Shown piece by piece: positions 2,467-30,032 of a stretch of DNA of 30,032 nt. This stretch comes from Candidatus Iainarchaeum sp. (GTDB lineage Archaea > Iainarchaeota > Iainarchaeia > Iainarchaeales > CSSED10-239), in NCBI GenBank assembly GCA_028700905.1, contig JAQVRT010000004.1, forward strand, positions 1 through 30,032, given 5' to 3'. Under the pieces are notes generated by a model. That model saw only the letters and a list, made by a program, of their open reading frames with translations, was not told the origin of the DNA and made no database searches. The number at the start of each line of letters is the position of its first letter. Position 1 is the first letter of the stretch. A program made the position numbers and the translations under genes.

Positions 2467-3840
2467 TTAATCTTTAAAACTATCATAAACATTATTGATC
2501 TTAGAAATGATTTTATCTTGAAAAGTTTTCTTATTTTTAGTTAAATCAATATTATTTTTCTTAAATTCATCAAAAAGATCCATAATAGTTTCATAACAAT
2601 AACCTTTAGAAATTAAAAAAGAATAAACTTGATCTTTTGTAATTGAGTCTTTATAGTTTATAAATAAATTATATAAATTTCTAATAATCTCAGCCTTATC
2701 TTCCTTAAGTTCAGATCTATGATGTAATTTACTTGAAATTTCATCAGTTATATTTCTTTCAAATTCTTTGGATTTATTTAAATTAAGTTTAATATTTTTA
2801 TAATAATCCCAATCATTAGAATTAATTTTTTCAACAGTTTCTTGAATTTCTCTAATTTGATTAATTTTTTCTTTTAAAGAAAGCACTTCTTTTTCTTTAT
2901 TTTTAACATCTTCATAAAATTTTAAAATATTCTCAATCTCTAAAGAGACATCTTTAAAAGAGGCTTTATTAGCTTGAGAATTAAAATCTTCATTTGATTG
3001 CATAATTAAATCTTTTAAACCATAAGAATCTTTTTTTCTAGAATCAATTATTTCTACAATATCTTTTTTTTTAAAACCTTGTTTTGTTAAATTAAAAACA
3101 ACATCTTTTATTTTTTCTCTAAGTTCATCTCTCTTACTAAATGTAGAGTTTATTTCATTTTCACTTTCAGTTAAATCTTTCTTACTATTAATTAATGCCT
3201 TTTTATTAATTATTACAAGATTAATATAAAAGCTTGAAGGGATCTTAGAAGACAATCTACTTTCAAATAAAAATATAAAAAATAATAATAAAGAAATAGA
3301 AATTGGGAAAAATTTAGTTTCTCCAATAATATTAAATAAACTAACTTTTGTAATTATAAAATAAACAATTACAGAGATTAAAAAACCAGAAATTGTTAAA
3401 ACATTTTTTGTAAAGCTAATATTCTTTAAAATTTTATAAACTTTAAAAGCAGCATCAGAATCTAAACCAACTGTTTTTCTAATAATAAAAATTGAACCAT
3501 CTTTATCTGAAAGATCAAGATTATAGAAAACTTCTTTAAATCTACTAATCATTTTTTGAATATTTTCTTCAGAATCATCTAAATTAATTCTACTTATAAG
3601 TTTTGATAAATCTCTTGGAGAAGAAATTAAACTATATAATTTAGTTGTAAGTTTATAGTTAAAAAAACCAACTATAAATAAAACAATTAAAATAATTAAC
3701 GAAAAGATAAATGGAAGAGAATTATTTTTAGAAATTCCAAATACTTGGAAATAATATAATATAGAAAATATTAATGAAGAAAGTAAAATACTTAATATCC
3801 AAAAAAACAATCTACTTTCTTTTTTAAAAGAATAACTCAT
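2467..3840 (-). CDS. Membrane/coiled-coil protein of unknown family (paralogue A of 15226..16620)
   Basis: The 457-aa protein has two hydrophobic helix pairs (about aa 10-62 and about aa 150-195) separated by a soluble segment of roughly 80 aa. These are followed by a long K/E-rich, heptad-like region and a small C-terminal domain (LISKGYCYETIMDLFDEFKK...KINNVYDSF). It is collinear with the 464-aa ORF at 15226..16620. Confidence 0.75.
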   Translation of the reverse strand: MSYSFKKESRLFFWILSILLSSLIFSILYYFQVFGISKNNSLPFIFSLIILIVLFIVGFFNYKLTTKLYSLISSPRDLSKLISRINLDDSEENIQKMISRFKEVFYNLDLSDKDGSIFIIRKTVGLDSDAAFKVYKILKNISFTKNVLTISGFLISVIVYFIITKVSLFNIIGETKFFPISISLLLFFIFLFESRLSSKIPSSFYINLVIINKKALINSKKDLTESENEINSTFSKRDELREKIKDVVFNLTKQGFKKKDIVEIIDSRKKDSYGLKDLIMQSNEDFNSQANKASFKDVSLEIENILKFYEDVKNKEKEVLSLKEKINQIREIQETVEKINSNDWDYYKNIKLNLNKSKEFERNITDEISSKLHHRSELKEDKAEIIRNLYNLFINYKDSITKDQVYSFLISKGYCYETIMDLFDEFKKNNIDLTKNKKTFQDKIISKINNVYDSFKD

Positions 3841-3896: not shown

Positions 3897-3897
3897 G

Positions 3898-3972
3898 TGG
3901 AAATGGCAGGATTCGAACCTGCGACCTTTGGTGTATAAGACCAATGCTCTAACCAGACTAAGCTACACTTCC
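3898..3972 (-). tRNA. tRNA-Ile, anticodon UAU (reads AUA)
   Basis: Hand-folded reverse complement: GGAAGTG TA GCTT AGTCTGGTTA GAGC A TTGGT CTTATAC ACCAA AGGTC GCAGG TTCGAAT CCTGC CATTTCC A. This gives a 7-bp acceptor stem (one G-U), a 4-bp D stem, a 5-bp anticodon stem, a 7-nt loop C-T-TAT-A-C, a 5-bp T stem and a TTCGAAT loop. No CCA is encoded and there is no intron. Confidence 0.9.
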
Positions 3973-6126: not shown

Positions 6127-6166
6127 AAAAAAAATAAAAATAAAAAAATTCCATCTATTCATGGAA
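6127..6166 (-). terminator. Hairpin plus T-tracts at the end of the histone-fold gene
   Basis: The minus strand reads TTCCAT-GAATAG-ATGGAA, a 6-bp stem overlapping the TAG stop. It is followed immediately by TTTTTTT A TTTTT A TTTTTTTT. Confidence 0.4.
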
Positions 6167-6568
6167 TTTTCTTTCAACATCGTTAACTAAGACATCACAA
6201 TCTGCTTTAATTTTTTCTAAAGCTTTTATGATTCTTATTTTTTCAAGTTCAATTGTTTGAATATTTTCAAAAGTTTCTATTGCTTGCTTAAACATACCAT
6301 AATCAACATAACTATAATCAAATTCGTTCATTTTCTTACAAATAGTTTCAACTATTCTTCCTAAGAAAATATTCATTTCTTTTTTAACAACAGATTTTAT
6401 TTGCTTATTTTGATCTAAACTCTCTCTCATAAGTCTTACAACTCTTGCATTAGGGAAAGGAAGTTTTTCATCATCTTCATCTAAAGTTTCATCTTCATCA
6501 TCAACTAAAGATGCATCTTTATTCTCTAAAACTTCTTGATCATTTATTTGTTTTTCAACTTCACTCAT
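6155..6568 (-). CDS. Histone-fold protein (CBF/NF-Y/archaeal-histone-like) with an acidic N-terminal tail and a C-terminal helical extension
   Basis: The core KLPFPNARVVRLMRESLDQNKQIKSVVKKEMNIFLGRIVETICKKMNEFDYSYVDYGMFKQAIE lines up with the histone-fold pattern (compare HMfB ELPIAPIGRIIKDAG.ERVSDDARITLAKILEEMGRDIASEAIKLA....KTIKAEDIELAV). It is preceded by about 35 aa rich in D/E (LVDDEDETLDEDDE) and followed by about 40 aa of predicted helix. AGGGG Shine-Dalgarno-like element, ATG start. Confidence 0.5.
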   Translation of the reverse strand: MSEVEKQINDQEVLENKDASLVDDEDETLDEDDEKLPFPNARVVRLMRESLDQNKQIKSVVKKEMNIFLGRIVETICKKMNEFDYSYVDYGMFKQAIETFENIQTIELEKIRIIKALEKIKADCDVLVNDVERKFHE

Positions 6569-6851: not shown

Positions 6852-6892
6852 AAATTATCCTCTTTTTTTAAAATCTATATAAAAATAGAAAG

Positions 6893-6967
6893 TGGGAATG
6901 GCAGGATTCGAACCTGCGGCCTCTCGATTATCAGTCGAGTGCTCCAACCAGACTAAGCTACACTCCC
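6893..6967 (-). tRNA. tRNA-Ile, anticodon GAU
   Basis: Hand fold: GGGAGTG TA GCTT AGTCTGGTTG GAGC A CTCGA CTGATAA TCGAG AGGCC GCAGG TTCGAAT CCTGC CATTCCC A. The D and T arms are nearly identical to those of the Ile(UAU) gene. No CCA is encoded. Confidence 0.9.
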
Positions 6968-7099
6968 TTTATATATTAATTTATAAAGAATAGTATATAA
7001 AAATATTTCTATTATTAAATATTTAACTTAATAAAGAAATAAAAACCCTTCCTTTTTAAAATATTAATATAAAAGAAATATTTCTTTGCTAAATAAAAT

Positions 7100-7172
7100 A
7101 GTCCGGTAGTGTAGTGGCCAAGCATGTCAGGCTTTGAACCTGGCGACAGGAGTTCGAATCTCCTCCGGACTA
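7100..7172 (+). tRNA. tRNA-Gln, anticodon UUG
   Basis: Hand fold: AGTCCGG TA GTGT AGTGGCCAA GCAT G TCAGG CTTTGAA CCTGG CGAC AGGAG TTCGAAT CTCCT CCGGACT A. It has an A1-U72 first pair and a 4-nt variable region. No CCA is encoded. Confidence 0.88.
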
Positions 7173-7204
7173 TATTTATTAAAATAAACTAATTGTGATA
7201 AAAA

Positions 7205-7450: not shown

Positions 7451-7936
7451 TTAAGAATATAAATAATCCTTAATCTTGTTCTTAATAACATTAATATTTG
7501 TAAGATAAACATTTAAAGCATTTTCAAGTCTTGAAGCTTCTAAATTAAATTCTTTTGCTCTACCTGCAATTAAATATTCTTCATCTTTTTGTTTATCAAT
7601 AATTTCAAGTTCTTTTCTAACAACAATATATCTTTTAAGAGTCATAGCATAATAACTATAATTATCTAAAAGATCACTATAAAGTTTTCTTGTAACATCA
7701 TCTTTATAGATTTGTTTTCCTTCAAAAGTAAATTTTCCTTGTTGTCTTGCCCCTGTTTTTTTACCAGATGCAACTTCTGAAACTACTATATAGTGTTGTT
7801 CAAGCCAGTCAATAGATTTTACTCTATAGTTCTTTTGTTCTACTTGAACTACTTTTGGTCTTTTAATTTCAGAAATAACAGACTCGTCAATTTCAACAAC
7901 TTCTGTAACTCTTGTTTTCTTAAATAGTTTAAACAT
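7451..7936 (-). CDS. Hypothetical protein (161 aa), no family recognised
   Basis: A clean ORF with an ATG start preceded by GGTGAT at 6 nt. It has coding-like K/E/I-rich composition and a C-terminal helical/coiled segment. I cannot assign a family by eye. Confidence 0.6.
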   Translation of the reverse strand: MFKLFKKTRVTEVVEIDESVISEIKRPKVVQVEQKNYRVKSIDWLEQHYIVVSEVASGKKTGARQQGKFTFEGKQIYKDDVTRKLYSDLLDNYSYYAMTLKRYIVVRKELEIIDKQKDEEYLIAGRAKEFNLEASRLENALNVYLTNINVIKNKIKDYLYS

Positions 7937-12459: not shown

Positions 12460-12551
12460 GTTTGTTTCAGATAACTTAATTATTTTAGTAATTGTATATA
12501 AGTAATTATACTAAATATTATTTTAAAAAAGTAACTATACACTAATATTAC

Positions 12552-13940
12552 ATGGACAAAAAAATAATACCTATGCTTTATGATATTAAGAAATATCTAA
12601 ATACAAAAAATCTTGATTATTTTGAAATAAGATTTGAAAAACATAAAAATAGAATTATAGATGTTGAAAATACTTCAACAAAAGAACTTATTGAAAAAGA
12701 AACTGAAGGAATTGGAATTAGGATAATTATAGATAAAAAAGTAGGTTTCTTAGCATTAAATGAATTTTCAAAATATAAAGAAAAAATAGATAAAGTAATT
12801 GAAAATACAAAAAGAATTAATAAAAAAACAGAATTTAAAAATTATTCTACAAATAAAGGAAAAGACATCTTAAAATATAAAGATTTTGAAAGTATTTCAA
12901 ATTCTCAAAAAATAAAAGAAATTAATGAAATTAATAAAGAAATATTAAAAACAAGTAATAGAGATATAAAAATACTTAATTCAGAAATAATTTATAAAGA
13001 AACAGAAATTGAAAAATACTTTTTAACAAACCATGCAGAAATACATCAAAAAAGACCATACACTGTTTTTTATTCAAAAATAACAGGTAAAAAAAATTAT
13101 CAAATAGAAACTAATGTAGATAGACTTGGAAGTATCGGTGGTCTTGAACTATTTAATAAAGAAGAAAAAATAAAAATGGTTCTTGAAAATAGAAAAACAC
13201 TTCAAGAATTATTAGAATCAAAACCATGTCCTGCAATTACAACAGATATAATTTTAAGTCCAGATGTTGGCGAACTTTTAGCACATGAAGCTATAGGACA
13301 TGCTTGTGAAGGAGATTTTTTAATAGATAAAACAACTGTTCTTAAAAAAGGATTAAAAGTATCTAAAAATCCAGAAGTAAATATTATAGATAATCCAGAA
13401 AAAAAAGATTTTGGTTATTTTAAATATGATGATGAAGGAATTAAAGCAAAAAAAGTAGATTTAATTAAAAACGGAGTTGTAAATGATTTTATGACAGATA
13501 TTACAACTGCAACAAAATTAAATGAAATTTCAAATGGATCTGCAAGAAGTGAAAATTATAATTTCCTTCCTATAGTTAGAATGAGTAACACATATTTTAA
13601 AGAAGGAACTACAAAAGAAAAAGATATGCTGTCAGATTATACTGGATTTTTACTTAAAGGTTTTTCAGGTGGAGAAGTAGATACAAACATAGGTACATTT
13701 ATGTTTGGTATAAGACAAGCTTATGAATACAAACATGGAGAAATAATAAATAAATATAAACAAGCATCCATTTCAGGAGATATTTTAAAATATTTAAATA
13801 AAATTACAGAAATTTCAAATAAAATTGGAAACTTTGAATTTGGGTATTGTGGAAAAAATGGGCAAACTGCTTTTGTTAGTGGAAGTAGCCCCTTAATTAA
13901 AATAGAAGATGTTATTGTAGGGGGTACAAAACATGAATAA
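12552..13940 (+). CDS. tldD: TldD-type metalloprotease
   Basis: The 462-aa protein contains LLAHEAIGHACEGD, the HExxxH zinc site characteristic of TldD. It is followed by a PmbA-like partner with an 8-nt overlap (ATGAATAA). Confidence 0.85.
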   Translation: MDKKIIPMLYDIKKYLNTKNLDYFEIRFEKHKNRIIDVENTSTKELIEKETEGIGIRIIIDKKVGFLALNEFSKYKEKIDKVIENTKRINKKTEFKNYSTNKGKDILKYKDFESISNSQKIKEINEINKEILKTSNRDIKILNSEIIYKETEIEKYFLTNHAEIHQKRPYTVFYSKITGKKNYQIETNVDRLGSIGGLELFNKEEKIKMVLENRKTLQELLESKPCPAITTDIILSPDVGELLAHEAIGHACEGDFLIDKTTVLKKGLKVSKNPEVNIIDNPEKKDFGYFKYDDEGIKAKKVDLIKNGVVNDFMTDITTATKLNEISNGSARSENYNFLPIVRMSNTYFKEGTTKEKDMLSDYTGFLLKGFSGGEVDTNIGTFMFGIRQAYEYKHGEIINKYKQASISGDILKYLNKITEISNKIGNFEFGYCGKNGQTAFVSGSSPLIKIEDVIVGGTKHE

Positions 13941-15222
13941 AGAAGAAATATTTAATTATTGTAAAAATATTAGTAAAAAAGAAGAAATTACTTTTAAATA
14001 TATAAAAAGTGAAAGTGAAAAGGCAGAGTTTAGAAATTTCTCAATTGAGAATTATAAAATGAATAATATAGATAAATTATTTATAAGAGTGATTGATAAA
14101 GGAAAAATTGGATCTTATAGCATACAAGGAATTACAAAAGAAAAGATTGAAAAAGGAATTAAAAAAGCAAAAGATATTGCAAAAAATAAAAAATCAGAAG
14201 TTAAGTTTGAAAGTTTTGGTAAAGATGTCAATCATAAGCAAATAAAATCTGATTTCAGAATAGAAAATGTAGATTTTTCAAAAAAATTAGAAGAAATTAA
14301 AAAAAATTTAACTAAAGATAAATATATTCAAGGATATCTTGGAGGAATTTCAAAAAACCATATTGAAAGTTTTTTTATTAACCCTTATTTTAGTAAAGAA
14401 AATAAAAAAGACTTTGTTTCATTATCATCATTAGTAATTACAAAAAATAAAAAAAAATCATCTGGTGACTTCTTTTCAATATTTACAAAAGAAGAAGATA
14501 TTGATATTAATCAGACATTTATGCAGGCAAAACATAATGCATACACTCTTATGGACCCTGTAAATGGTGAAAAAGGAGAATATACTTTAATATTTACACC
14601 AGAAATTACAAGAGAATTTTTTGAATTTATTCTTTCAGGAACAAAAGGAGAAGCTATTGAGAAAAAAAATAGTTTTTTACATGATTCTTTAGGTAAAAAA
14701 ATCTTTTCAGAAAACATAAATCTAAAAGAAGAACCTACTCTTGATTATTTTTTAAGTTCTTCAAAAATAGATGATGAAGGATTTAAAACATCTAAAAAAA
14801 ATATAATTAATAAAGGAGTTTTTAGAAAACCTATATATAACCTTTATGAAAGTATAAAATATAATAAGAAACCTACAGGAAATGCATTCCTTGAGAATGG
14901 ATTTGATCCAGAATATACAAATATCATACAAGAAGCAAGTAATAAAAAAATAGATGATATGATATCAAAAACTAAAAAAGGAATCTTAATCTATGAGATT
15001 TTAGGGTTCCACACAAACAAAATAACTACAGGAGACTTTTCTTTAACAATTTCTTCTGGAAAGGCTATTAGAGATGGACAATTTAAAGAAACTGTGACAA
15101 ATTTAAATTTAACAGGTAATTTAAGAGAATTATTTAGAGAAATAGAATTTTCAAAAGAACAAAAGTTTTTTGGAAGTTCACTTTATAGTTTTTCAAAAAT
15201 ACAAAAAGTAAAATTAATATAG
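13933..15222 (+). CDS. pmbA: PmbA/TldE-type partner of TldD (TldD/PmbA family, no HExxxH)
   Basis: The 429-aa protein is translationally coupled to tldD. It has family-typical C-terminal segments (DDEG....K..I.kGv, GDFS..I..G..I.dG) and lacks the metal-binding HExxxH, as expected for the PmbA/TldE subunit. Confidence 0.7.
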   Translation: MNKEEIFNYCKNISKKEEITFKYIKSESEKAEFRNFSIENYKMNNIDKLFIRVIDKGKIGSYSIQGITKEKIEKGIKKAKDIAKNKKSEVKFESFGKDVNHKQIKSDFRIENVDFSKKLEEIKKNLTKDKYIQGYLGGISKNHIESFFINPYFSKENKKDFVSLSSLVITKNKKKSSGDFFSIFTKEEDIDINQTFMQAKHNAYTLMDPVNGEKGEYTLIFTPEITREFFEFILSGTKGEAIEKKNSFLHDSLGKKIFSENINLKEEPTLDYFLSSSKIDDEGFKTSKKNIINKGVFRKPIYNLYESIKYNKKPTGNAFLENGFDPEYTNIIQEASNKKIDDMISKTKKGILIYEILGFHTNKITTGDFSLTISSGKAIRDGQFKETVTNLNLTGNLRELFREIEFSKEQKFFGSSLYSFSKIQKVKLI

Positions 15223-15225
15223 TTT

Positions 15226-16620
15226 TTATTTAGATGAAAATAAATCATAAAAACTATTAATTTTATTTACTAATTTTTCAGAGAAAGATATTTTTTTATC
15301 TTTCCCAAAAGTAATTTTTTTATCTTTAAATTTCTGTAAAACATCTTCTACAATCTCATAAGGATAACCATAATAAACTAATGTAGAAAAAACATCATTT
15401 TGAGAAGAAGTTTCAACTGTTGGTAAAAATAAGTGATATAAATAACTTATAAGTTTATCATATTCTTCATTTCTCTTATCGAGCAATTCTTTAATTTCTT
15501 TAGGATCTGCTTTTTTAAGATCTTTATACTTATTTGACATTATTGGTTCTTTTTTAAGTTTTTTAACTTCTTTTGAAACACTAATAGTTGACATCTTTTC
15601 AAGTTTTTCTTGTCTTTGAGAAATTTCACTAACTTCTTTTTGAAGTTTTGAAACTTCATTATAAATTTGATTAATTTGTTCAAAACTATCATGTATTTTT
15701 GAAAGAGTTAATCTTATTGCAGAATCAGATTTTGCATTAAATAAAACTTTTCCAGAATTATTTTTTTCAAGATTTAATTCTTTTTCAGACATTTCAATAA
15801 ATTTTGAAATTGTAGATTGATCAACATCATACTTACTAAAGAAATTAGAAATAGCTTCTTTACTTACATCTTGAGATAAAAGAAATTTAGTTGCTTTTTG
15901 AATATTATCTAATAAACCTTTTTGTTTTTGATTATAATTATTTAACTTTTCTTCTTTTTCTAAAGATTCTCTTTTTACTTCTAATATTTTTTCTTTATTT
16001 ATATTTATTAAATTTAAATAAAAAGAATCAGGCATTCTTGTAATTAAATAACCTTCTAAAACAAATAAAAGAAATATTATTACTGCAGATATAATAAAAA
16101 CATAATTAGGAATAATATTAAATACTGGTAAACTACTTACAAAAAAATATAAACCTAAAGAAATTATTACACCTAAAGATATTGATAAAGTTTTTAATCT
16201 TTTTAATCTTTTTATATTTTTAACAATCCCATCTGCACTCTCTTTAGAAATACCAACATTTTTAATTAAATAATTTATAGAAATTTGAGAATAATTGCTT
16301 TTACTTATATTTCTTATAGCGTCTTTTAACTTATCAACTAATTGATCAATATTTTCTTCAGTTTTTTTAACATCAACTTCAGATAAAACTTCATTAAGAT
16401 TGGATTTTCTGAATTTAGAATACCAAAAGAAAGGTATTTTTGAAAATAAAATACCAATTAAGAAAAATAATAAAATAATTATAAGCATTATTACATATGG
16501 AAGAAATTTAATTTCAGTAATATATGATAAAGAAGTAGAAGTCTTTGAGAAAAAATAAAAAATTCCACTGAATATTATACCAAATATCCAGAAAAATAAT
16601 TTAGTTAAATTTTTGTTCAT
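15226..16620 (-). CDS. Membrane/coiled-coil protein of unknown family (paralogue B of 2467..3840)
   Basis: The 464-aa protein has the same architecture as 2467..3840. Collinear shared strings are LFFWI (N-terminus), EENI, VG..S.A, FNII, P-SFY-NL-I-NK after the second helix pair, GY-YE-(I/V), and K(I/L)..KIN..YD-F at the C-terminus. Confidence 0.75.
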   Translation of the reverse strand: MNKNLTKLFFWIFGIIFSGIFYFFSKTSTSLSYITEIKFLPYVIMLIIILLFFLIGILFSKIPFFWYSKFRKSNLNEVLSEVDVKKTEENIDQLVDKLKDAIRNISKSNYSQISINYLIKNVGISKESADGIVKNIKRLKRLKTLSISLGVIISLGLYFFVSSLPVFNIIPNYVFIISAVIIFLLFVLEGYLITRMPDSFYLNLININKEKILEVKRESLEKEEKLNNYNQKQKGLLDNIQKATKFLLSQDVSKEAISNFFSKYDVDQSTISKFIEMSEKELNLEKNNSGKVLFNAKSDSAIRLTLSKIHDSFEQINQIYNEVSKLQKEVSEISQRQEKLEKMSTISVSKEVKKLKKEPIMSNKYKDLKKADPKEIKELLDKRNEEYDKLISYLYHLFLPTVETSSQNDVFSTLVYYGYPYEIVEDVLQKFKDKKITFGKDKKISFSEKLVNKINSFYDLFSSK

Positions 16621-16706: not shown

Positions 16707-17342
16707 ATGGATATTGAAAAAATATATAAAATTCTTAAAAAAGAACTTAAAGAATATACAATTCCTCTTGCAGAACAAATAGAGATAAAAAGTAAAAATC
16801 CTTTTTATGTATTAATTGGAACAATGCTTTCAGCAAGAACAAAAGACCAAACTACTGCTAAAGTTTGTGATAATTTATTTAAAGAGATAAAAAATACAGA
16901 TGATTTAATAAAAATTAAAATTGAAAAATTAGAAAAATTAATCTATCCTGTTGGATTTTATAAAACAAAAGCTAAAAATTTAAAATTACTTGCTGAAAAA
17001 TTAAAAGAAGATTTTAATGATAAAGTGCCAAATACTATAGAAGAGTTAATTACTCTTCCAGGTGTAGGAAGAAAAACTGCAAATCTAGTAATTGCAGTAT
17101 CATATAAAATTCCTGCAATTTGTGTTGATACACATGTACACAGAATATTTAATAGAATAGGCTATATTGAAACAAAAAACCCTTTAGAAACAGAAATGGT
17201 TTTAAGAAATAAACTTCCTAAAAAATTTTGGATAGACACAAATTATTTATTTGTTATCTTAGGACAAAACATTTGCTTTCCAAGAAATCCTAATTGTAAA
17301 AATTGCCCAATAAACAAAATTTGTTTAAAAAAAATTAAATGA
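16707..17342 (+). CDS. nth: Endonuclease III (HhH-GPD DNA glycosylase/AP lyase with a 4Fe-4S cluster)
   Basis: The helix-hairpin-helix motif LPGVGRKTANLV is present, along with the catalytic-region motif VDTHVHR. The C-terminal iron-sulfur ligand pattern is C-x6-C-x2-C-x5-C (CFPRNPNCKNCPINKIC). Confidence 0.92.
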   Translation: MDIEKIYKILKKELKEYTIPLAEQIEIKSKNPFYVLIGTMLSARTKDQTTAKVCDNLFKEIKNTDDLIKIKIEKLEKLIYPVGFYKTKAKNLKLLAEKLKEDFNDKVPNTIEELITLPGVGRKTANLVIAVSYKIPAICVDTHVHRIFNRIGYIETKNPLETEMVLRNKLPKKFWIDTNYLFVILGQNICFPRNPNCKNCPINKICLKKIK

Positions 17343-18559: not shown

Positions 18560-19258
18560 TTATCTACATCCAATCTCTTTTAGAAAAGAATCCTCTAAAT
18601 TTACATCATAATATACTTTTCCATTAATATAAACTGATGGAGAAGAACTAATATTATAATCAGAAATAATTTGATTTAAAATGGGAATATAATTAACATA
18701 AGGAAGAGCAATTGAATTTAAATTACATTCTTTAGTTAATCTTTCTAATTTTTCTGCAAAAAATAATGTTCTAGCATCAGACTCTGCTTTTTCTACACTA
18801 AAATCTTGAAATTCAGGATAGAAATATAAAATTGCTCTTTCTTTATTATATCCACATTCTTTTTCAATAGAATTATAATGAAGCCAAAGATTAATGTTTG
18901 TTAAAACAAATAAAAGTTTAGTTCTATCATCTGATTCAACAATTGCATTTCTATTTATTTTTTTTAATCTTAAATAAAGTTCACTATTAATATTAAGATA
19001 AGAATCTAATTGATTTTTTAAAACAGTACATTTTTCAGAATTACCCTCATCTAAATATTTTTTATAAAGATCATTTAAAATAATTTGTTGTTGTAAAATA
19101 TTATAATCATCTTCAATTACTTTTCTTTTATGACTATCATAAAAATTAATTGCAGAAAATACAACAATAAATAATACTACAATAATTAAAAATGCAAACA
19201 ACAATATATTATTGTTAAAAGTTTTATTTTTAATAAAAATTTTATCTTTTTTATTCAT
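18560..19258 (-). CDS. N-terminally anchored membrane protein, unknown function
   Basis: The 232-aa protein has a single TM helix (LLFAFLIIVVLFIVVFSAINF) and an extracytoplasmic domain with four Cys. The C-terminal SPSVYINGKVYY resembles the end of a thioredoxin/DsbA-like fold, but no CxxC motif is present. Confidence 0.55.
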   Translation of the reverse strand: MNKKDKIFIKNKTFNNNILLFAFLIIVVLFIVVFSAINFYDSHKRKVIEDDYNILQQQIILNDLYKKYLDEGNSEKCTVLKNQLDSYLNINSELYLRLKKINRNAIVESDDRTKLLFVLTNINLWLHYNSIEKECGYNKERAILYFYPEFQDFSVEKAESDARTLFFAEKLERLTKECNLNSIALPYVNYIPILNQIISDYNISSSPSVYINGKVYYDVNLEDSFLKEIGCR

Positions 19259-22397: not shown

Positions 22398-23846
22398 ATG
22401 GAACAACTATATTTAACAGAATGCGTGTATGAAGAAGAAAAACAAAGAATAATAAGCTATTTTTCAAAAGATCCTTATAGCAATAAATATGATTTTGTAT
22501 ATAAAGAAAAATTTAATCCTTATTTTTATATAGATCTTCCAAAAGAAATAGTGCAGAAACTATTATCTGATTTTAGAAAAGAAATTAAAGTTGAAAAAAT
22601 TGAACAAAATAAAATAAAAGTAATTGCAAAAAATAAAGAAACTTTAAATAAAATATATAAGATATTATCTATATCGACTTCTAAAAACATATTAATATTA
22701 GATATTGAAAGAGAGTATTTAATTGAAAAAGAATGGAGTTATTATGATTTATTCATAATAATATCTAAAATAAAAATTAAAAAGATTGAAAATAATAATA
22801 TAAGTGCAATTGTTAAAAAGTATATTAATCCTTTCTTAAAAGAAGAGCAATTAAAGTTAATTGAAAATCTAACTAAAAAATTACTTTTAAGCAATATATT
22901 AAAAATAAAAATAAAGAATATTAATAATCAAGAAATATTAAATAACTTCTTTGAAAATTTATATTTTGAAAATAAAATGATGTTAAATAACAAAATAAGC
23001 ATAGAATATTTAGAGAAAGAGAAAAATATAAAACAAGGAATAAAGATGGATTTTTCAAATATTTGGCCATATCTTTTAACAAAAGACTTTTACAACATTG
23101 GACACGACACCTTAAACTGTGATTGTTGTAAGCCAAAGAATTATCTAGATATTAATGTATTATCAAATTCAATTGTTAAAGTAAGATTTAAAAAACAAGG
23201 ATTCTATTTTATTTCAAAAGATCAAAATTGGGCTTATGAACAATTTCATAAAAATAATCTTAATAAAGAGAATAGACTTAATTTCAAGAAGAATAACGGC
23301 TTAAAAGAAATGCCTACAGGTCCTTTTTACAAAGGAGATTTTGCAAACATACCTTTAATAGATGCAATAAATTTAGTTTCAGAAGAAGAAATTGAAATTA
23401 TTGATGATTTAAAAGAAATAAAATGGTATTGTTTAAAGAAAGAATCTTTTTTATCTTTAAAAATAAAAGAATATTTAAAAAGATTAAAACATTTAGAAAC
23501 TTCCATAAATTTAAGTAATTCTTTTAATTACAATTATTCTTTTAAAAACAATTTAGACAAAAATCCTATGTTCATACAATATTTGACAGAATATAAACTA
23601 ATAAACGATCTTATTGAGGAGATTCCAAAATTTATAGAACATAAAAACACTAAATTTTATGATTCTTTACTTGCTCAATCAATAAAATATTTAAAACTTG
23701 AAACCATTAAAAAAATAGACATAAATGAAAATAAATATTTAATAGACAAAGAAAAAGTAATTGTAAAAGAAAAAAAAATTATTGAGAAAATAAATAATTA
23801 TTTTCCTCAATTAAACTTACCAATACCAAAACTAATAGTTAATTAG
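22398..23846 (+). CDS. Miniaturised, apparently inactivated family-B DNA polymerase-like protein
   Basis: PolB landmarks occur in canonical order. They are LYLTECVYEEEKQRIISYFSK..KFNPYFYI (N-terminal domain), NILILDIEREY (Exo I-like) and MDFSNIWPYLLTKDFYNIGHDTLNCDCCKPKNYLD (motif A region). They continue with INLSNSFNYNYSF (motif B-like), KFYDSLL (motif C position) and IIEKINNYFPQLNL (post-motif-C segment). Key catalytic residues are substituted, and the protein is only 482 aa. Confidence 0.6.
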   Translation: MEQLYLTECVYEEEKQRIISYFSKDPYSNKYDFVYKEKFNPYFYIDLPKEIVQKLLSDFRKEIKVEKIEQNKIKVIAKNKETLNKIYKILSISTSKNILILDIEREYLIEKEWSYYDLFIIISKIKIKKIENNNISAIVKKYINPFLKEEQLKLIENLTKKLLLSNILKIKIKNINNQEILNNFFENLYFENKMMLNNKISIEYLEKEKNIKQGIKMDFSNIWPYLLTKDFYNIGHDTLNCDCCKPKNYLDINVLSNSIVKVRFKKQGFYFISKDQNWAYEQFHKNNLNKENRLNFKKNNGLKEMPTGPFYKGDFANIPLIDAINLVSEEEIEIIDDLKEIKWYCLKKESFLSLKIKEYLKRLKHLETSINLSNSFNYNYSFKNNLDKNPMFIQYLTEYKLINDLIEEIPKFIEHKNTKFYDSLLAQSIKYLKLETIKKIDINENKYLIDKEKVIVKEKKIIEKINNYFPQLNLPIPKLIVN

Positions 23847-24240: not shown

Positions 24241-25455
24241 CTATTTGTTAATTTTAGCATCAACTGTCTTTATTGTCTCTACAAACTTATCAATTTCTTC
24301 AAAAGTATTATAAAAATATAAAGAAGCTCTTGAAAGTCCATTTTTATCAAACCTTGTAACAATTGGCTCTGCACAATGAACTCCAGCTCTTGTTGCAATA
24401 TTTGACATATCATCTAAAATTGCAGAAAGATCACTACAATCAATACCTTTAAGCCTAAATAAAAAAATAGGACTTTGTAAATTTTTATCTAAAGGATTAA
24501 ATAATTCTAAATTCTTAATAGCTTTTAATTTTTCAATACCATAATCTAATAAAAGTTTATCTTGTTTTTCAATATTTTCAAGCCCAATATCAGATATATA
24601 ATCAATAGCTTTTGAAAAACCAAAAACTCCAGAAATATTTGGAGTTCCTGCTTCAAATTTAAAAGGAATACTATTAGTACTAAAATCAGTTATTGAAACA
24701 TTTTTAATCATGTCTCCACCAAACTTATAGGGCATAAATTTTTCTAAATTATTTTCTTTTGAAATTAAAAATCCTAAACCAGTAGGACCTAACATTTTAT
24801 GAGCTGTAAATACTAAAAAATCACAATCAAGCTCTTTAAAATTTAACTTTAAATGAGGTGCTGATTGAGAAGCATCAATTAATGTTAGACAATTATATTT
24901 TTTAGATAAAGAAATAATTTCTTTAATTGGAATTATAGTTCCTGTAGTATTTGAAACATGTGTAATTGCAACCAACTTTGTTTTTGAAGAAAGCTTATCT
25001 TTAAAATCTTCAATATCAAGTGTAAAATCATCTTTTATTTCAACAAATTTAAGTTTAACACCTATTTTTTTAGATAAAAAAAGCCAAGGAACTAAATTTG
25101 CATGATGTTCTAAAATAGAAAGAACAATTTCATCATCTTTTTTAAAATATTGAGAATTATAAAGAGAATACATCACTAAATTAATTGAATCAGTACTATT
25201 GTTTGTAAAAACAACTTCATTTTCTTTAGAACCTATAAACTTTGCAAGCTTTTCTCTTGTTTCTTGATAAATTATAGAGGCTCTCATTGATAATTTATGT
25301 ATCCCTCTATGAATGTTTACAGGAAAATCTAAATAATACTCACTAATTCCTTCTAAAACTTGCTTTGGTTTTAAAGAAGAAGCTGCATTATCAAAATAAA
25401 CAATTTTATTTTCTTTTAAAACTTTAAAGTCTTCTCTAATTTTTAAAATATCCAT
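24241..25455 (-). CDS. sufS: Cysteine desulfurase (class V aminotransferase, SufS/CsdA-like)
   Basis: The N-terminal segment is IREDF..L.....VYFDNAASSLKP..V......YY......IHRG.H. It also has LEHHANLVPW, the PLP-lysine region FTAHKMLGPTGLGFL, and the catalytic Cys loop ATRAGVHCAEP. Confidence 0.88.
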   Translation of the reverse strand: MDILKIREDFKVLKENKIVYFDNAASSLKPKQVLEGISEYYLDFPVNIHRGIHKLSMRASIIYQETREKLAKFIGSKENEVVFTNNSTDSINLVMYSLYNSQYFKKDDEIVLSILEHHANLVPWLFLSKKIGVKLKFVEIKDDFTLDIEDFKDKLSSKTKLVAITHVSNTTGTIIPIKEIISLSKKYNCLTLIDASQSAPHLKLNFKELDCDFLVFTAHKMLGPTGLGFLISKENNLEKFMPYKFGGDMIKNVSITDFSTNSIPFKFEAGTPNISGVFGFSKAIDYISDIGLENIEKQDKLLLDYGIEKLKAIKNLELFNPLDKNLQSPIFLFRLKGIDCSDLSAILDDMSNIATRAGVHCAEPIVTRFDKNGLSRASLYFYNTFEEIDKFVETIKTVDAKINK

Positions 25456-25540: not shown

Positions 25541-25613
25541 AGCTCGGTAGTGTAGTGGCCAAGCATGTAAGACCCTGGATCTTACGACAGGAGTTCGAAT
25601 CTCCTCCGAGCTA
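25541..25613 (+). tRNA. tRNA-Gln, anticodon CUG (with C at position 33)
   Basis: Hand fold: AGCTCGG TA GTGT AGTGGCCAA GCAT G TAAGA CCCTGGA TCTTA CGAC AGGAG TTCGAAT CTCCT CCGAGCT A. It has an A1-U72 pair, and its D and T arms are identical to those of tRNA-Gln(UUG) at 7100..7172. No CCA is encoded. Confidence 0.85.
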
Positions 25614-27461: not shown

Positions 27462-30032
27462 TTATTTATTACTTCTTTTAACAGCATCTAAAATAAACTC
27501 ATAGTTACTATCATACTTCTTTTTCTTTTCAATATCACTTTTATGTTCTTCTTCTTTTTCATCTACATTTTTTTCAGAAGTATTATTATCAAGTTTATTT
27601 CCAAGATATTTATTCATGGCATCCTTAGGTTCCATTTCTTTGAAAACATCTTCTTTTTTCTTACGACCAGAAGCAACCATCCAGATAACTAAAAGTAAAA
27701 TTATAATTACTAAAAGAACAACAGCTACCATAAACAAAGATTTACTATCAATTAAAGGTTTTTCAAAATTTAAATCTTCTAAATTAACAGAACCAGTTAA
27801 AAGAAGAGGTGAACTATAAACAATTGCATCAAATTTTGTTAAAATATCAAAACTGGTAATTGGAGTTTGACTAATATATTTTGTTGTAAGAGATGAATTT
27901 TTAGGTATCACTAAATTATAAAGGATGATTGGATCTTTATCAATAACAACAATTTCTCTATCAAAATAAATGTTATCTGAAGATTTTTCAAATTCCTTAG
28001 GAATTACTTCAATAAATGAAATTATTTTATCTTCATTTGCATCATTTACAAAAATTAAATTACTTGAATAAAAATTTTGACCAGACACTTCAAAAACACT
28101 AAACTCTCTTGAGACTGAAATAAAGTTTAAATCTTGATTATTAACATCATAGAAAGATAAATTATCTGTCAATATATTTTGATCTAAAATAACTGTATTA
28201 AGATCAAAAGAATTATTTAAAAGATCAATTTCAATAGTTTTTGTTTTTAAAATATTTTCTTTAGGTAAAACGTCTAAAATTTCAAGTAAAGAATTATTTG
28301 AAGAAGTATATGTATTTACAGCTTCAGAAAAATTATTTGAATCTTCTAAAGATTTTGCAAGAACAACTTTATCTTTTGCATCAGAAAATTTATCTAAAAG
28401 CTCTTGAGAAACATCTAAAGAAATTGCTTGAAGAAAAGAGATTCTATCTTCAATAGTTAAAATATTTGAATTTATTTCAGCAACTAAACTTTCTTTTAAA
28501 ACTAAAGCTTCATCAACATTATCAATTTCAAAAGAAATAATTTCTGTTTCATAATTTAATGCTTGATCATAAACTAAAACATACATTTTATGATTTCCAT
28601 CTTCATAAAGAGTAGAATCAAGTGAACAAAGATAATCATTATTTGAATCTTCAATAAAACAAACTTCTTCAACATTATTTAATAAATATTGAGCTCTGAA
28701 AACATCTTCTGAAAAATCACTTATTTTAAATTCATATAATTTAGTTTCTTCAAAGAAATTATAGTCTGCTGTAAAAGTTGGAACTTCTGCATCTACTATA
28801 AAATTAAAAGTATCAGTTGTAGTTTCATTACTGTTATTTGTACCAGTTATTTCTAAAACAGAATCTCCACTTTCTTCTAAAGAATAATTAAAAGTTGTAA
28901 TTAAGTTACTATAACTTGCAGAAATTGATTTATAAGGTAAACTTCCAACTTTAAGTCTAATTATAGGGGTTTGTTTTAATTCTTCACTACTTGTAATAGT
29001 AAACAAAACATTTCCTTTTTTTAAATAATAAACATCATCTACTAAATTTTTTGGACTTGCATTAAAAGTAAAAGAAGGTCCAAATCTTTTTGCAGTTCCA
29101 GAAGCAATAGATGAAAGATCAGATTCATTTAATGCTTCATCAATTGCAGATATTTTAAAATAAAAAGTTTTATCTTCATTAGGATTAAAAATATATTCTT
29201 CATCTGAAGAAGTCATATATTGTGAAGATTTAGAAACTGACTCAGATTCTGAATAATAAATTCTATACTCATCAAGACCACTGCCATTTACATCTGTTGA
29301 GCTTGTCCAAGAAAGCTTTAAGGAACCATTTGCTAGTTCTAAAACTTCTATGTTACTTGGGATTGTAGGAGCTTTTGAATCAAGTTCAAATTCAAAAGAT
29401 TTTCTTGTTATTAAATAAGGGTCATCTTCACTTCTTGCCTCAACATAAATTATTTTGTCTCCCTGATCTGTATTACATCCATTTCCAGAAGTTATATTAA
29501 AACTATCATAAACTTCAGAAGTTCCTGAAACTTCTACCCATGAAGTAAAAGTTGAAGCATTACAACTAAACCTAACAGCATTAACATCAGAACCATACTC
29601 TAAATTAATCTCTGGAGTTACAGTATTTACAAAATCAGAATCTTCTAAATCAATATCAACATCAAGTTCAGGACCAGTTTTTATACTTGCAGTTACAACT
29701 GAACTATTATTTCCTGCATTATCAATTGCAGTAACCCCATAATAATATCTAGTATCATCTGATTTTGAAGTTGAATCAAGACAAGTTTTTGAAGCTGCTG
29801 CAGAAACTGTACAAATTAAATCTTGATTTGAAATTTCTGTAAAAGAAGAAGTTGATCTATAAACTTTATATTCTTTTAAACCACTTCCAGAATCAGTTGA
29901 AGTGCCCCAATTTGAAATTGTAACATTATTATCTACTGCTCTTGTAACTGTTGACACTGTAGGAGTTGTTGGAGATGTTTCATCTATCATTATTGAAAAT
30001 TCTTTTTCATTTAAATTACCTAAAAGATCTGT
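27462..30032 (-). CDS. Large cell-surface protein with fibronectin-III-like domains and a C-terminal transmembrane anchor (5' end outside the window)
   Basis: The frame stays open upstream of the listed ATG (29990) to the window edge (TDLLGNLNEKEFSI-MIDE...), and the listed N-terminus has no signal peptide, so the gene is probably truncated by the window. FN3-like units are VTISNWGTSTDSGSGLKEYKVYRS...YYYGVTAIDNAGNNS and LKLSWTSSTDVNGSGLDEYRIYYS...FYFKISAIDEALNES. The C-terminal helix is LFMVAVVLLVIIILLLVIWMVA, followed by a K/E-rich tail. Confidence 0.75.
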   Translation of the reverse strand, partial: TDLLGNLNEKEFSIMIDETSPTTPTVSTVTRAVDNNVTISNWGTSTDSGSGLKEYKVYRSTSSFTEISNQDLICTVSAAASKTCLDSTSKSDDTRYYYGVTAIDNAGNNSSVVTASIKTGPELDVDIDLEDSDFVNTVTPEINLEYGSDVNAVRFSCNASTFTSWVEVSGTSEVYDSFNITSGNGCNTDQGDKIIYVEARSEDDPYLITRKSFEFELDSKAPTIPSNIEVLELANGSLKLSWTSSTDVNGSGLDEYRIYYSESESVSKSSQYMTSSDEEYIFNPNEDKTFYFKISAIDEALNESDLSSIASGTAKRFGPSFTFNASPKNLVDDVYYLKKGNVLFTITSSEELKQTPIIRLKVGSLPYKSISASYSNLITTFNYSLEESGDSVLEITGTNNSNETTTDTFNFIVDAEVPTFTADYNFFEETKLYEFKISDFSEDVFRAQYLLNNVEEVCFIEDSNNDYLCSLDSTLYEDGNHKMYVLVYDQALNYETEIISFEIDNVDEALVLKESLVAEINSNILTIEDRISFLQAISLDVSQELLDKFSDAKDKVVLAKSLEDSNNFSEAVNTYTSSNNSLLEILDVLPKENILKTKTIEIDLLNNSFDLNTVILDQNILTDNLSFYDVNNQDLNFISVSREFSVFEVSGQNFYSSNLIFVNDANEDKIISFIEVIPKEFEKSSDNIYFDREIVVIDKDPIILYNLVIPKNSSLTTKYISQTPITSFDILTKFDAIVYSSPLLLTGSVNLEDLNFEKPLIDSKSLFMVAVVLLVIIILLLVIWMVASGRKKKEDVFKEMEPKDAMNKYLGNKLDNNTSEKNVDEKEEEHKSDIEKKKKYDSNYEFILDAVKRSNK

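Follow-up and report, generated by a model that had tools for sequence, protein, structure and literature searches.

A thumbless, probably non-catalytic family-B DNA polymerase homologue with a GINS B-domain-like insertion in Candidatus Iainarchaeum and its relatives

Inactivated homologues of family-B DNA polymerases (PolB) have been described in archaea and in eukaryotes, and a further, divergent one appears to be encoded by Candidatus Iainarchaeum sp. The gene lies in a stretch of 30,032 nucleotides, called the window below (GenBank assembly GCA_028700905.1, contig JAQVRT010000004.1, positions 1 to 30,032 of the forward strand). Its product of 482 amino acids is predicted to be a thumbless and probably non-catalytic PolB homologue, with a GINS B-domain-like module inserted into the palm behind a set of four cysteines (Cys4). 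In the archaeal PolB2, or B2-group, proteins, both the exonuclease and the polymerase centres are disrupted (PMC2527604, PMC4104785). A role in repair or regulation has been proposed for PolB2, with a gene-order link to recombination and repair by way of an inactivated RadA and arCOG07300 (PMC4104785). In eukaryotes, the C-terminal module of Pol epsilon, which is the C-terminal half of Pol2, keeps an inactivated PolB fold structurally (PMC2669801). This module also makes contact with the CMG helicase, and in yeast it is essential (PMC7544198).

Two other groups of proteins are relevant. The catalytic module of Pol epsilon, which is active and processive, has an insertion in its palm between motif A and finger helix 1, the P-domain, with a [4Fe-4S] motif at the P-domain base, termed CysX and made of C665/C668/C677 and C763 (PMC6582351). 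The P-domain site and CysX have each been called a feature of Pol epsilon orthologues alone (PMC7544198, PMC6582351). The B-domain of GINS proteins, published as a fold of five strands and one helix, stabilises interfaces between GINS subunits, and it is also found as the C-terminal domain of PriS, an earlier graft of a B-domain onto another replication protein (PMC2861644). B-domains can dock partners as well, given that Gins51C binds GAN and DP1N and that Psf1C binds Dpb2N (PMC9023282).

The family represented in the window can be set against each of these systems. Like PolB2, it consists of archaeal PolB homologues in which the exonuclease and polymerase centres are disrupted, and a role in repair or regulation can be proposed for it from a gene-order link to recombination and repair. 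PolB2 keeps the complete set of PolB domains, thumb included, and is recognised as B-family by sequence, whereas the family described here is invisible to the PolB models of Pfam and is without a thumb or an exonuclease domain. Unlike PolB2, it has a GINS B-domain-like insert, a Cys4 site and NurA-HerA-Rad50 neighbours instead of RadA-like genes. It resembles the C-terminal module of Pol epsilon in that an inactivated PolB fold is kept as structure; that module, however, is part of a giant polypeptide with two modules, has C-terminal zinc fingers and reaches GINS via Dpb2, whereas here a GINS-type domain appears to be built in. With the catalytic module of Pol epsilon it shares a palm insertion between motif A and finger helix 1 and a 3+1 arrangement of cysteines, but the inserted domain is not a P-domain. 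Finally, the PolB3 enzymes of the Thermococcales (Pfu, KOD, Tgo and 9N) are among the best structural matches and have the same N-terminal domain, motif A region and topology of fingers and palm. Unlike the family described here, they are active, are about 775 amino acids long, have an exonuclease domain and a thumb, and keep their catalytic motifs intact.

A thumbless and exonuclease-less protein with a GINS B-domain in the palm behind a Cys4 set is without precedent among inactivated PolB homologues. No description of the family was found in the literature on PolB in DPANN or Diapherotrites, on HerA or NurA together with an inactivated PolB, or on Forterrea, and Iainarchaeia are not mentioned in the supplements of a survey of PolB diversity.

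The gene is placed as follows, in exact agreement with the coordinates, strand, start and length given in a preliminary description made from the sequence of the window alone.

22398..23846, + strand: whole open reading frame (ORF), ATG start, 482 amino acids plus stop; probably inactivated, thumbless PolB-like protein with a GINS B-domain-like insert

The nearest genomic relative, with 95% amino acid identity, is encoded on the complete chromosome of Candidatus Forterrea multitransposorum (Diapherotrites, DPANN). Between the two orthologues the synonymous divergence (dS) is 0.61 and the nonsynonymous divergence (dN) is 0.024. The resulting dN/dS is 0.04, and therefore the gene is functional and under strong purifying selection. 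A word-indexed search returned 37 clusters with 43-100% identity, nearly all of about 482 amino acids; no Pfam domain is present in any of these 37 close clusters, and every named one is a 'hypothetical protein'. When the family profile was run exhaustively against 1.84 billion cluster representatives (50% identity clusters), 160 representatives scored E <= 1e-3, and for 108 of these the E value was 1e-30 or lower. The best 150 of these 160 matches are all of 546 amino acids or fewer; therefore, the family profile stops short of the canonical PolBs, which have about 750 amino acids or more. The named members come from metagenome-assembled genomes (MAGs) of Diapherotrites/Iainarchaeum ('ainarchaeum'), save one labelled Micrarchaeota. 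Conservation is given below as counts among 52 diverse members of the family (alignment A2), in which six residues are invariant: P41, N233, R293, G308, P309 and D322.

Ordinary searches did not connect the protein with polymerases. With the single protein as query, searches of Pfam, NCBIfam and PDB sequences returned nothing, and the PolB models of Pfam and NCBIfam gave no match at E <= 10. The family profile found nothing significant among PDB sequences, and none of the 52 diverse members matched a PolB model of Pfam at E <= 0.1. The connection is made by structure. An AlphaFold2 model, built from 26 family sequences and no templates, has a mean predicted local distance difference test score (pLDDT) of 86.4 and a predicted template modelling score (pTM) of 0.86. 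When this model was compared with the PDB by Foldseek, the best 50 matches were all family-B DNA polymerases, with E values from 8.1e-8 to 3.5e-6 and a probability of 1.00, including those of P. abyssi, 9N, Pyrobaculum, KOD, Tgo, Pfu and human Pol epsilon. The top match, 4fm2_A, has an E value of 8.1e-8; about 690 columns are aligned, the template modelling (TM) score on the query is 0.45-0.52 and the root-mean-square deviation (rmsd) over the full length is 11-14 Å. In a library of viral structures, the named matches in the best 50 were also DNA polymerases, except for the last, and their scores were weaker than those from the PDB. Of the checks that the preliminary description had proposed, the comparison with Pfam yielded no match to a PolB model, and AlphaFold with Foldseek yielded PolBs and nothing else among the best 50.

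The same relationship is detected by comparison of profiles. The profile of the 52 members was aligned by hhalign to a Pfu PolB reference, verified as identical to PDB 3a2f_A and combined with an alignment of Thermococcales PolBs. This reference profile is shallow, as the homologues listed in it are from Thermococcales only, with identities of at least 72%. Family residues 164-245 align to Pfu 333-430 with an E value of 2.7e-4, such that LSNIL falls on LSRLVG, FLENxFFKN on VEWFLLRKAYERNE, and the pattern DFS..W..LL...N.G.ET.NC.CC over the motif A region. Family residues 342-479 align to Pfu 440-575 with an E value of 0.21, collinear with the first match; here WFC.KKESFLS corresponds to HKFCKDIPGFIPS, SKFYS..LA.AI to ARWYCKECAESVT and the last helix to EFVKYINSKLPGL. 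Alignment to yeast Pol2 (a verified fragment, residues 637-991 of 4m8o) gives the same map, with the family NC.CC opposite DCASC and SKFYS opposite SRWYS. At the N-terminus, the best alignment, weak but collinear, is of family 13-65 to Pfu 10-65 (E 0.24), whereas hhalign in global mode and with N-terminal slices gave weak, short alignments. In an early hhalign run with the single sequence, VKVRFKKQGFYFI was placed opposite Pfu VGHKFCKDIPGFI; the longer collinear alignment, which puts W-F-C345 there and is consistent with the Pol2 alignment, has replaced it.

An N-terminal domain, a palm and fingers are therefore found in the order typical of PolB, both by Foldseek and by the collinear hhalign alignments. 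The similarity to PolB is genuine and goes far beyond what chance would give; it is seen by comparison of structures and of profiles with profiles, and ordinary profile search is blind to it. Several elements of the preliminary description are borne out by this map. It had compared N-terminal strands with those of Thermococcales PolB, as the alignment of residues 13-65 does; it had recognised the motif A region, where DFSNIWPYLL...DTLNCDCC is now aligned to Pfu ...DTLNLEGC; and it had paired IIEKINNYFPQLNL near the C-terminus with EFVKYINSKLPGL, a pairing recovered by hhalign to both Pfu and Pol2.

The domains of the protein, as drawn from hhalign and from secondary structure assigned to the model by DSSP, are listed here, with the insert and its cysteines given further below. 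For the N-terminal and exonuclease regions, this map depends in part on the order in which secondary-structure elements follow one another.

22398..22748, + strand: PolB N-terminal domain, residues 1-117; four strands, a helix, two strands, a long helix and the REYLIEKE helix (DSSP, hhalign)
22749..22838, + strand: vestige of the exonuclease domain, residues 118-147; one beta-hairpin and one short helix (DSSP)
22839..23036, + strand: second part of the N-terminal domain and linker, residues 148-213; LSNIL and FFENLYFEN helices, then a loop; within the hhalign match of family 164-245 to Pfu 333-430
23037..23135, + strand: palm part 1, residues 214-246; degenerate motif A (D218 FSNIWPYLL ... N233 ... 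DTLN), then C241-D-C243-C244-K-P; aligned to Pfu 399-430 and Pol2 639-668 (hhalign)
23448..23639, + strand: fingers, residues 351-414; two long antiparallel helices, 351-378 and 390-414 (DSSP); hhalign to Pfu 440-503 and Pol2 814-835
23640..23843, + strand: palm part 2, residues 415-482; NTKFY (Pfu ARWY), a long helix, hairpin 447-456, helix IIEKINNYFPQ and the last strand

The N-terminal domain is well conserved at single positions (Y11 is Tyr in 49/52, P41 is invariant and R105 is Arg in 50/52), as is E186 in its second part (Glu in 51/52). The exonuclease domain is reduced to a vestige: Exo I, II and III are absent, in that no hhalign alignment to the Pfu exonuclease region 125-332 was obtained, and some 30 residues take the place of about 195 in Pfu. 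Residue D117 is Asp in 43/52, and F119, at the place where the Exo I Glu would be expected to fall, is Phe in 51/52. A loop of low confidence (pLDDT 57-77, residues 200-220) stands in for the first palm strand (GGxVxxP). The linker before motif A seems elastic: member P0016, of 535 amino acids, has an internal tandem duplication of 53 residues in the region of the ILNILFENNFY helix (alignment A1, columns 214-266), and therefore this linker tolerates added length.

The catalytic positions of the palm and fingers have not been kept. At the motif A Asp, position 218, the family has Asp in 42 members, Asn in 6, and Glu, Ser, Ala and Pro in one each, beside an invariant N233. The equivalent of motif B is residues 403-411 on finger helix 2 (NDLIEEIPK); it is degenerate, and the KxxxNSxYG pattern is not kept, since positions 403, 407, 408, 410 and 411 are variable (N/S/K..., E/S/N..., P, F/K/L...). 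At the place of motif C, the hairpin 447-456 is retained structurally (DSSP strands 447-450 and 453-456), but among the 52 members no acidic residue of the YxDTDS type is conserved around its turn, and columns 444-450 are variable. The thumb and the KxY primer-binding strands are absent, as the alignment stops at about residue 575 of the 775 of Pfu and the protein ends three residues later. Because the residues of motifs A, B and C are variable, the first palm strand is replaced, the KxY strands and thumb are lost and the exonuclease domain is cut to about 30 residues, polymerase or proofreading activity is very unlikely.

The overall view of the preliminary description, that of a miniature and thumbless PolB homologue with degenerate motifs that is probably non-catalytic, is thus supported by the fold matches, the truncation and the variable catalytic positions; the missing thumb, the missing Exo II and III and a length about 300 amino acids below that of Pfu PolB were all confirmed. 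Its placement of three motifs has to be revised. NILILDIEREY, read as Exo I, is no such motif, and its REYLIEKE part aligns to a helix of the N-terminal domain, KRYLIDKG (Pfu 118-125). The proposed motif B, INLSNSFNYNYSF, falls where finger helix 1 ends and lacks conservation in the family at large. KFYDSLL, assigned to motif C, corresponds instead to the stretch that follows motif B, RWYCKECA in Pfu and RWYSMEMA in Pol2. What that description passed over is an insert of about 95 residues with the fold of a GINS B-domain, the Cys4 set and a link to NurA, HerA and Rad50; the insert and the Cys4 set are the most conserved parts of the protein.

23136..23420, + strand: insert, residues 247-341; GINS B-domain-like fold, no counterpart in Pfu in the collinear map
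23118..23129, + strand: three N-terminal cysteines, C241, C243 and C244, of a predicted Cys4 metal site; each conserved in 51/52
23430..23432, + strand: fourth cysteine, C345 (W343-x-C345), which closes the insert; conserved in 51/52

The insert separates motif A from finger helix 1 and contains four of the six residues invariant in the family, R293, G308, P309 and D322, together with a near-invariant H284. Its elements are strand b1 (259-264), strand b2 (269-272), two extra helices (276-299) that carry H284 and R293, strand b3 (306-310, with GPF), strand b4 (315-319), a helix (320-328) that carries D322 and strand b5 (332-340). This topology, b1-b2-[two extra helices]-b3-b4-helix-b5, is that of the B-domain with its five strands and one helix, and human Sld5 also has an extra helix between b2 and b3 (PMC2861644). 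A stand-alone AlphaFold2 model of the insert (residues 236-352, 20 sequences) has a pLDDT of 88.5. Compared with the PDB by Foldseek, it matches Gins51C of T. kodakarensis (5ghr_B/D and 5ghs_D; 5GHS is the GAN-Gins51C complex) with a best E value of 0.11 and a probability of 0.99; for 5ghr_B the TM score is 0.74 on the 55-residue target and the rmsd is 2.1 Å. About 45 of the best 50 matches are GINS chains or chains of CMG or the replisome, including S. solfataricus GINS and T. kodakarensis GINS (3anw_A). Further matches are to PSF2 and other GINS-sized chains in CMG structures from human, yeast, worm and frog; for four chains the identity as PSF2 was confirmed.

Sequence comparison points in the same direction. 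The PSF2_N model of Pfam (PF25005) matches 7 of 40 insert sequences, with a best E value of 5.3e-4, and also 4 of the 52 full-length members. The top match of the insert from the window is Gins51_C (PF22090), with an E value of 0.077 over GPFYKGDFANIPLIDAINLVSEE and 13.2 bits against a cut-off of 27. The insert profile was aligned by hhalign to residues 3-65 of human PSF2 (a reference verified as identical to 2e9x_B), which is the whole B-domain, with an E value of 4.2e-4, and none of 200 shuffled PSF2 sequences reached its score of 27.1 (mean 10.8, standard deviation 2.6, maximum 23.5; z about 6). The insert and PSF2 have in common the signature GPF..G....(I/V)PL..A..L. On these models and alignments, the insert is a predicted GINS B-domain-like module, with the fold of the GINS B-domains and of the PriS C-terminal domain and with the GPF signature in common with PSF2. 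The protein is not itself a GINS subunit: the GINS A-domain is absent, as the PSF2 match covers residues 3-65 only and the rest of the protein is PolB fold. Unlike the B-domains of GINS, the one predicted here lies inside another domain rather than at a terminus, and it has two extra helices with R293 and H284. The B-domain has hitherto been known only in GINS subunits and PriS, and the present protein would be its third host.

The cysteines relate the site of the insertion to those of known polymerases. In the alignment to Pfu, C244 falls on C429 and C345 on C443 (W-x-C345 on H-K-F-C443), just before finger helix 1. Both Pfu residues are invariant in the Thermococcales alignment, and in those enzymes they bracket the same loop that is expanded in the family described here. 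The C429/C443 pair forms a disulfide in the KOD and Tgo polymerases, and therefore the insert should begin and end at neighbouring points in space. In the alignment to Pol2, C241 and C244 fall on C665 and C668, and C345 would correspond to C763 by its position relative to finger helix 1. The family thus has in common with Pol epsilon a bracket of 3+1 cysteines and an insertion that separates motif A from finger helix 1. The four cysteines probably bind a metal, either zinc or an iron-sulfur (Fe-S) cluster. The insert was also considered as a P-domain, but hhalign against Pol2 660-770 gave an E value of 0.74, and no Pol epsilon chain was among the best 50 Foldseek matches of the insert. The site and the cysteine bracket match Pol epsilon, yet sequence similarity to the P-domain of Pol2 is nil, and the inserted domain is a different one. 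Among proteins other than Pol epsilon, this family is the first in which the P-domain site carries a cysteine-bracketed insertion.

A cysteine desulfurase gene lies about 400 base pairs (bp) from the gene in the window (24241-25455, - strand), which may be a coincidence or may be tied to the Cys4 site. At three related loci, genes for Fe-S assembly (cysteine desulfurase, NifU and an HTH_5 regulator) are divergent and adjoin NurA (L020, 641-2588; L021, 573-2548; L023, 2167-4160).

The neighbourhood of the gene in more distant members gives a view of possible partners. In five of five divergent lineages examined (loci L020-L024), whose proteins are about 33-39% identical to member P0043, NurA, HerA and the gene are on one strand and Rad50 is convergent. 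The order is NurA, then in some loci HAD or toxin-antitoxin inserts, HerA (DUF87), zero to three ORFs, the gene and, in some, Rpb6-like and S17e genes; beyond these, the opposite strand carries Rad50 and then EF-1beta. The block NurA ... HerA ... / Rad50 is kept throughout L020-L024, and toxin-antitoxin or HAD genes often stand between NurA and HerA. HerA and the gene are 121 bp apart in L023, and small unannotated ORFs of 114-129 amino acids precede the gene in L020 and L021. Member P0038, at locus L025, has NurA 6 kilobases (kb) on its upstream side and, 3 kb downstream, a HerA (DUF87) gene (12508-15012, + strand) that is interrupted by an intein with a LAGLIDADG endonuclease. In the subfamily of the window, a HerA-like gene is 3-5 kb away in 5 of 17 loci. 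No RadA-like gene is among the called neighbours at the loci examined, and no Mre11 (metallophosphatase) gene was called next to Rad50 in L020-L024 (about 3-12 kb, locus coordinates). A search by tblastn with Pfu PolB found no canonical PolB in the window and 25 related loci (335 kb, part of those genomes); PolD is said to occur in the DPANN superphylum, according to a general statement in a review (PMC6355029). An origin of the gene from a virus or mobile element is held unlikely, in view of the conserved chromosomal synteny and of viral PolBs that match more weakly than cellular ones; no integrase or evident mobile-element genes are in the neighbourhoods examined.

The best explanation of these observations, with a probability of roughly 0.45, is that the protein is a catalytically dead derivative of an archaeal family-B polymerase, with its N-terminal domain, a reduced palm and the fingers kept, that would act as a non-enzymatic, DNA-binding adaptor; metal binding, DNA binding and the choice of partner are all predictions. 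The PolB remnant would bind DNA at a junction of single strand and duplex or at a DNA end, the cysteines would staple the base of the insert through a metal, and a partner would be held by the B-domain, a known docking module. Gene order makes the NurA-HerA and Rad50 machinery, for end resection and recombinational repair, the most likely candidate for this partner, and the CMG-PolD replisome would come next. The parts of this proposal are not equally firm. That the protein is a dead PolB scaffold with a B-domain as docking module is quite probable, and that its partner acts in repair or recombination is suggested tentatively.

Several observations weigh against the adaptor reading. No single GINS match reaches the curated thresholds; the best Foldseek E value of the insert is 0.11; and the PriS B-domain has no established docking role, so that the fold leaves the partner unspecified. 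In addition, no NurA, HerA or Rad50 gene is near the gene in the DNA of the window or in the Ca. Forterrea locus examined, such that the linkage is not universal, and the block also keeps S17e and EF-1beta, which means that the synteny may partly be inherited gene order.

The last two points are also the starting point of an alternative that is judged unlikely, in which the protein assists the replisome instead of repair, as a dead PolB scaffold tethered to the CMG helicase in the way that the non-catalytic C-terminal module of Pol epsilon is seated on CMG, and the synteny is gene order that has been inherited. The apparent homology of the insert to GINS B-domains, with their documented partners GAN/Cdc45 and DP1N/Dpb2N (PMC9023282), agrees with this, as does the lack of NurA and HerA nearby in the window and Forterrea loci, and the translation genes S17e and EF-1beta in the conserved block allow that its synteny is non-functional. 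Two of the 52 members match DUF1744 weakly (Pfam, E 0.018), which is at noise level for that many comparisons. DUF1744 is part of the inactive PolB-like module at the C-terminus of Pol epsilon. Yet no replisome gene (MCM, GINS, GAN, PolD, PCNA or primase) adjoins the gene in the neighbourhoods examined, the sole exception nearby being a Cdc6/Orc1-like gene about 7 kb away at locus L024. Furthermore, the close, same-strand order of NurA, HerA and the gene persists between members that are about 35% identical.

A protein with an unconventional, weak or specialised polymerase or primer-extension activity is a much more doubtful proposition, one that draws on the Asp kept at position 218 in 42/52 members and in the window protein, and on D450 and E452, which the window protein has at the motif C turn. 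There are precedents in PolB2/Dpo2, for which such activity has been reported, and in primer-independent PolBs, which are active without the first motif C Asp (PMC7544198, PMC4104785). However, the motif C turn has no conserved acid across the family, the motif A Asp is replaced in 10/52, and the motif B Lys, Asn-Ser and Tyr-Gly are lost; thumb, KxY strands and first palm strand are absent, and conservation is strongest in the insert and not at the active site.

It is scarcely credible that the ORF supplies one half of a split family-B polymerase, as the preliminary description had suggested, with the half that bears motif C and the thumb encoded elsewhere. Split PolBs exist in Methanothermobacter, and the protein does stop just past the motif C hairpin, a plausible point for a split. 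A split PolB has also been reported for Nanoarchaeum equitans (PMC4104785). However, motifs A, B and C are all inside the ORF and degenerate, and therefore a thumb supplied in trans could not restore catalysis. The motifs that this half should bring to such an enzyme are lost. No gene recognisable as the missing part, and no adjacent PolB-like fragment, is in the neighbourhoods examined; the 335 kb of related DNA likewise contain none, and there are no intein remnants.

That the resemblances to PolB and GINS are artefacts of structure prediction from a shallow alignment, with some unrelated fold behind them, is scarcely tenable: no library of sequence profiles reaches significance and the TM score of 0.45-0.52 and rmsd of 11-14 Å are modest, but both template-free models are confident, the sequence-only evidence agrees (hhalign at 2.7e-4 for PolB and at 4.2e-4, with shuffles, for PSF2; PSF2_N in 7/40), the Pfu and Pol2 alignments are collinear and mutually consistent, and a high global rmsd is expected with about 300 residues missing.

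If the protein is a non-catalytic adaptor, it would give a concrete role in replication or repair to one part of the unannotated DPANN proteome, given that the family occurs in the sampled Diapherotrites/Iainarchaeota MAGs and is annotated there as 'hypothetical protein'. Its linkage to NurA, HerA and Rad50 would also be an entry to recombination in a lineage in which homologous recombination is reported to shape the structure of populations (PMC5905446). A bolder and rather improbable version would make it an archaeal example of the wiring seen in Pol epsilon, a dead PolB coupled to contacts of the GINS/CMG type, with a metal-stapled insertion at the P-domain/CysX site. Were this version true, with an Fe-S cluster bound and the B-domain docked to GAN/Cdc45, to PolD-DP1 or to the HerA hexamer, the P-domain site would be an ancient hot spot for insertions into PolB. 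In that case archaea would have evolved helicase-attached, non-catalytic PolB scaffolds, whether earlier than the Pol epsilon architecture or separately from it.

In the window itself, which is archaeal and has a G+C content of about 22%, the gene is flanked on one side by a divergent gene for a sulfatase-like membrane protein and on the other by a convergent Alba gene, after which comes the cysteine desulfurase; Ca. 'ainarchaeum' MAGs have this arrangement as well. The window also encodes GatD/GatE, a thermosome and an SSB-like OB-fold protein. A tandem pair of TldD/PmbA metallopeptidase genes (12552-15222, + strand) and a gene for an HhH-GPD base-excision glycosylase (16707-17342, + strand) precede the gene. 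The same genes are upstream of a family member at the Ca. 'ainarchaeum' locus L001, and therefore the synteny spans about 53% protein identity. Five ORFs of 137-464 amino acids have no Pfam match (E <= 0.001-0.01), at 15226-16620, 2467-3840, 18560-19258, 7451-7936 and 6155-6568, all on the - strand, in agreement with the statement that about 45% of the Forterrea proteome is without annotation (PMC5905446).

Four tRNA genes are present, at 3897-3972 (- strand), 6892-6967 (- strand), 7099-7173 (+ strand) and 25541-25613 (+ strand). They comprise a tRNA-Ile (UAU) beside a tRNA-Ile(GAU) and two tRNA-Gln. A tRNA-Ile with a UAU anticodon is uncommon in archaea, in which AUA is usually decoded by a modified CAU tRNA, and it fits a very AT-rich genome. 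Towards the end of the window (27462-29990, - strand), a protein of 842 amino acids with weak Ig-like/fibronectin-III repeats is probably located at the cell surface, and near its start (467-955, - strand) a small protein has an archaeal class III (pilin-type) signal peptide.

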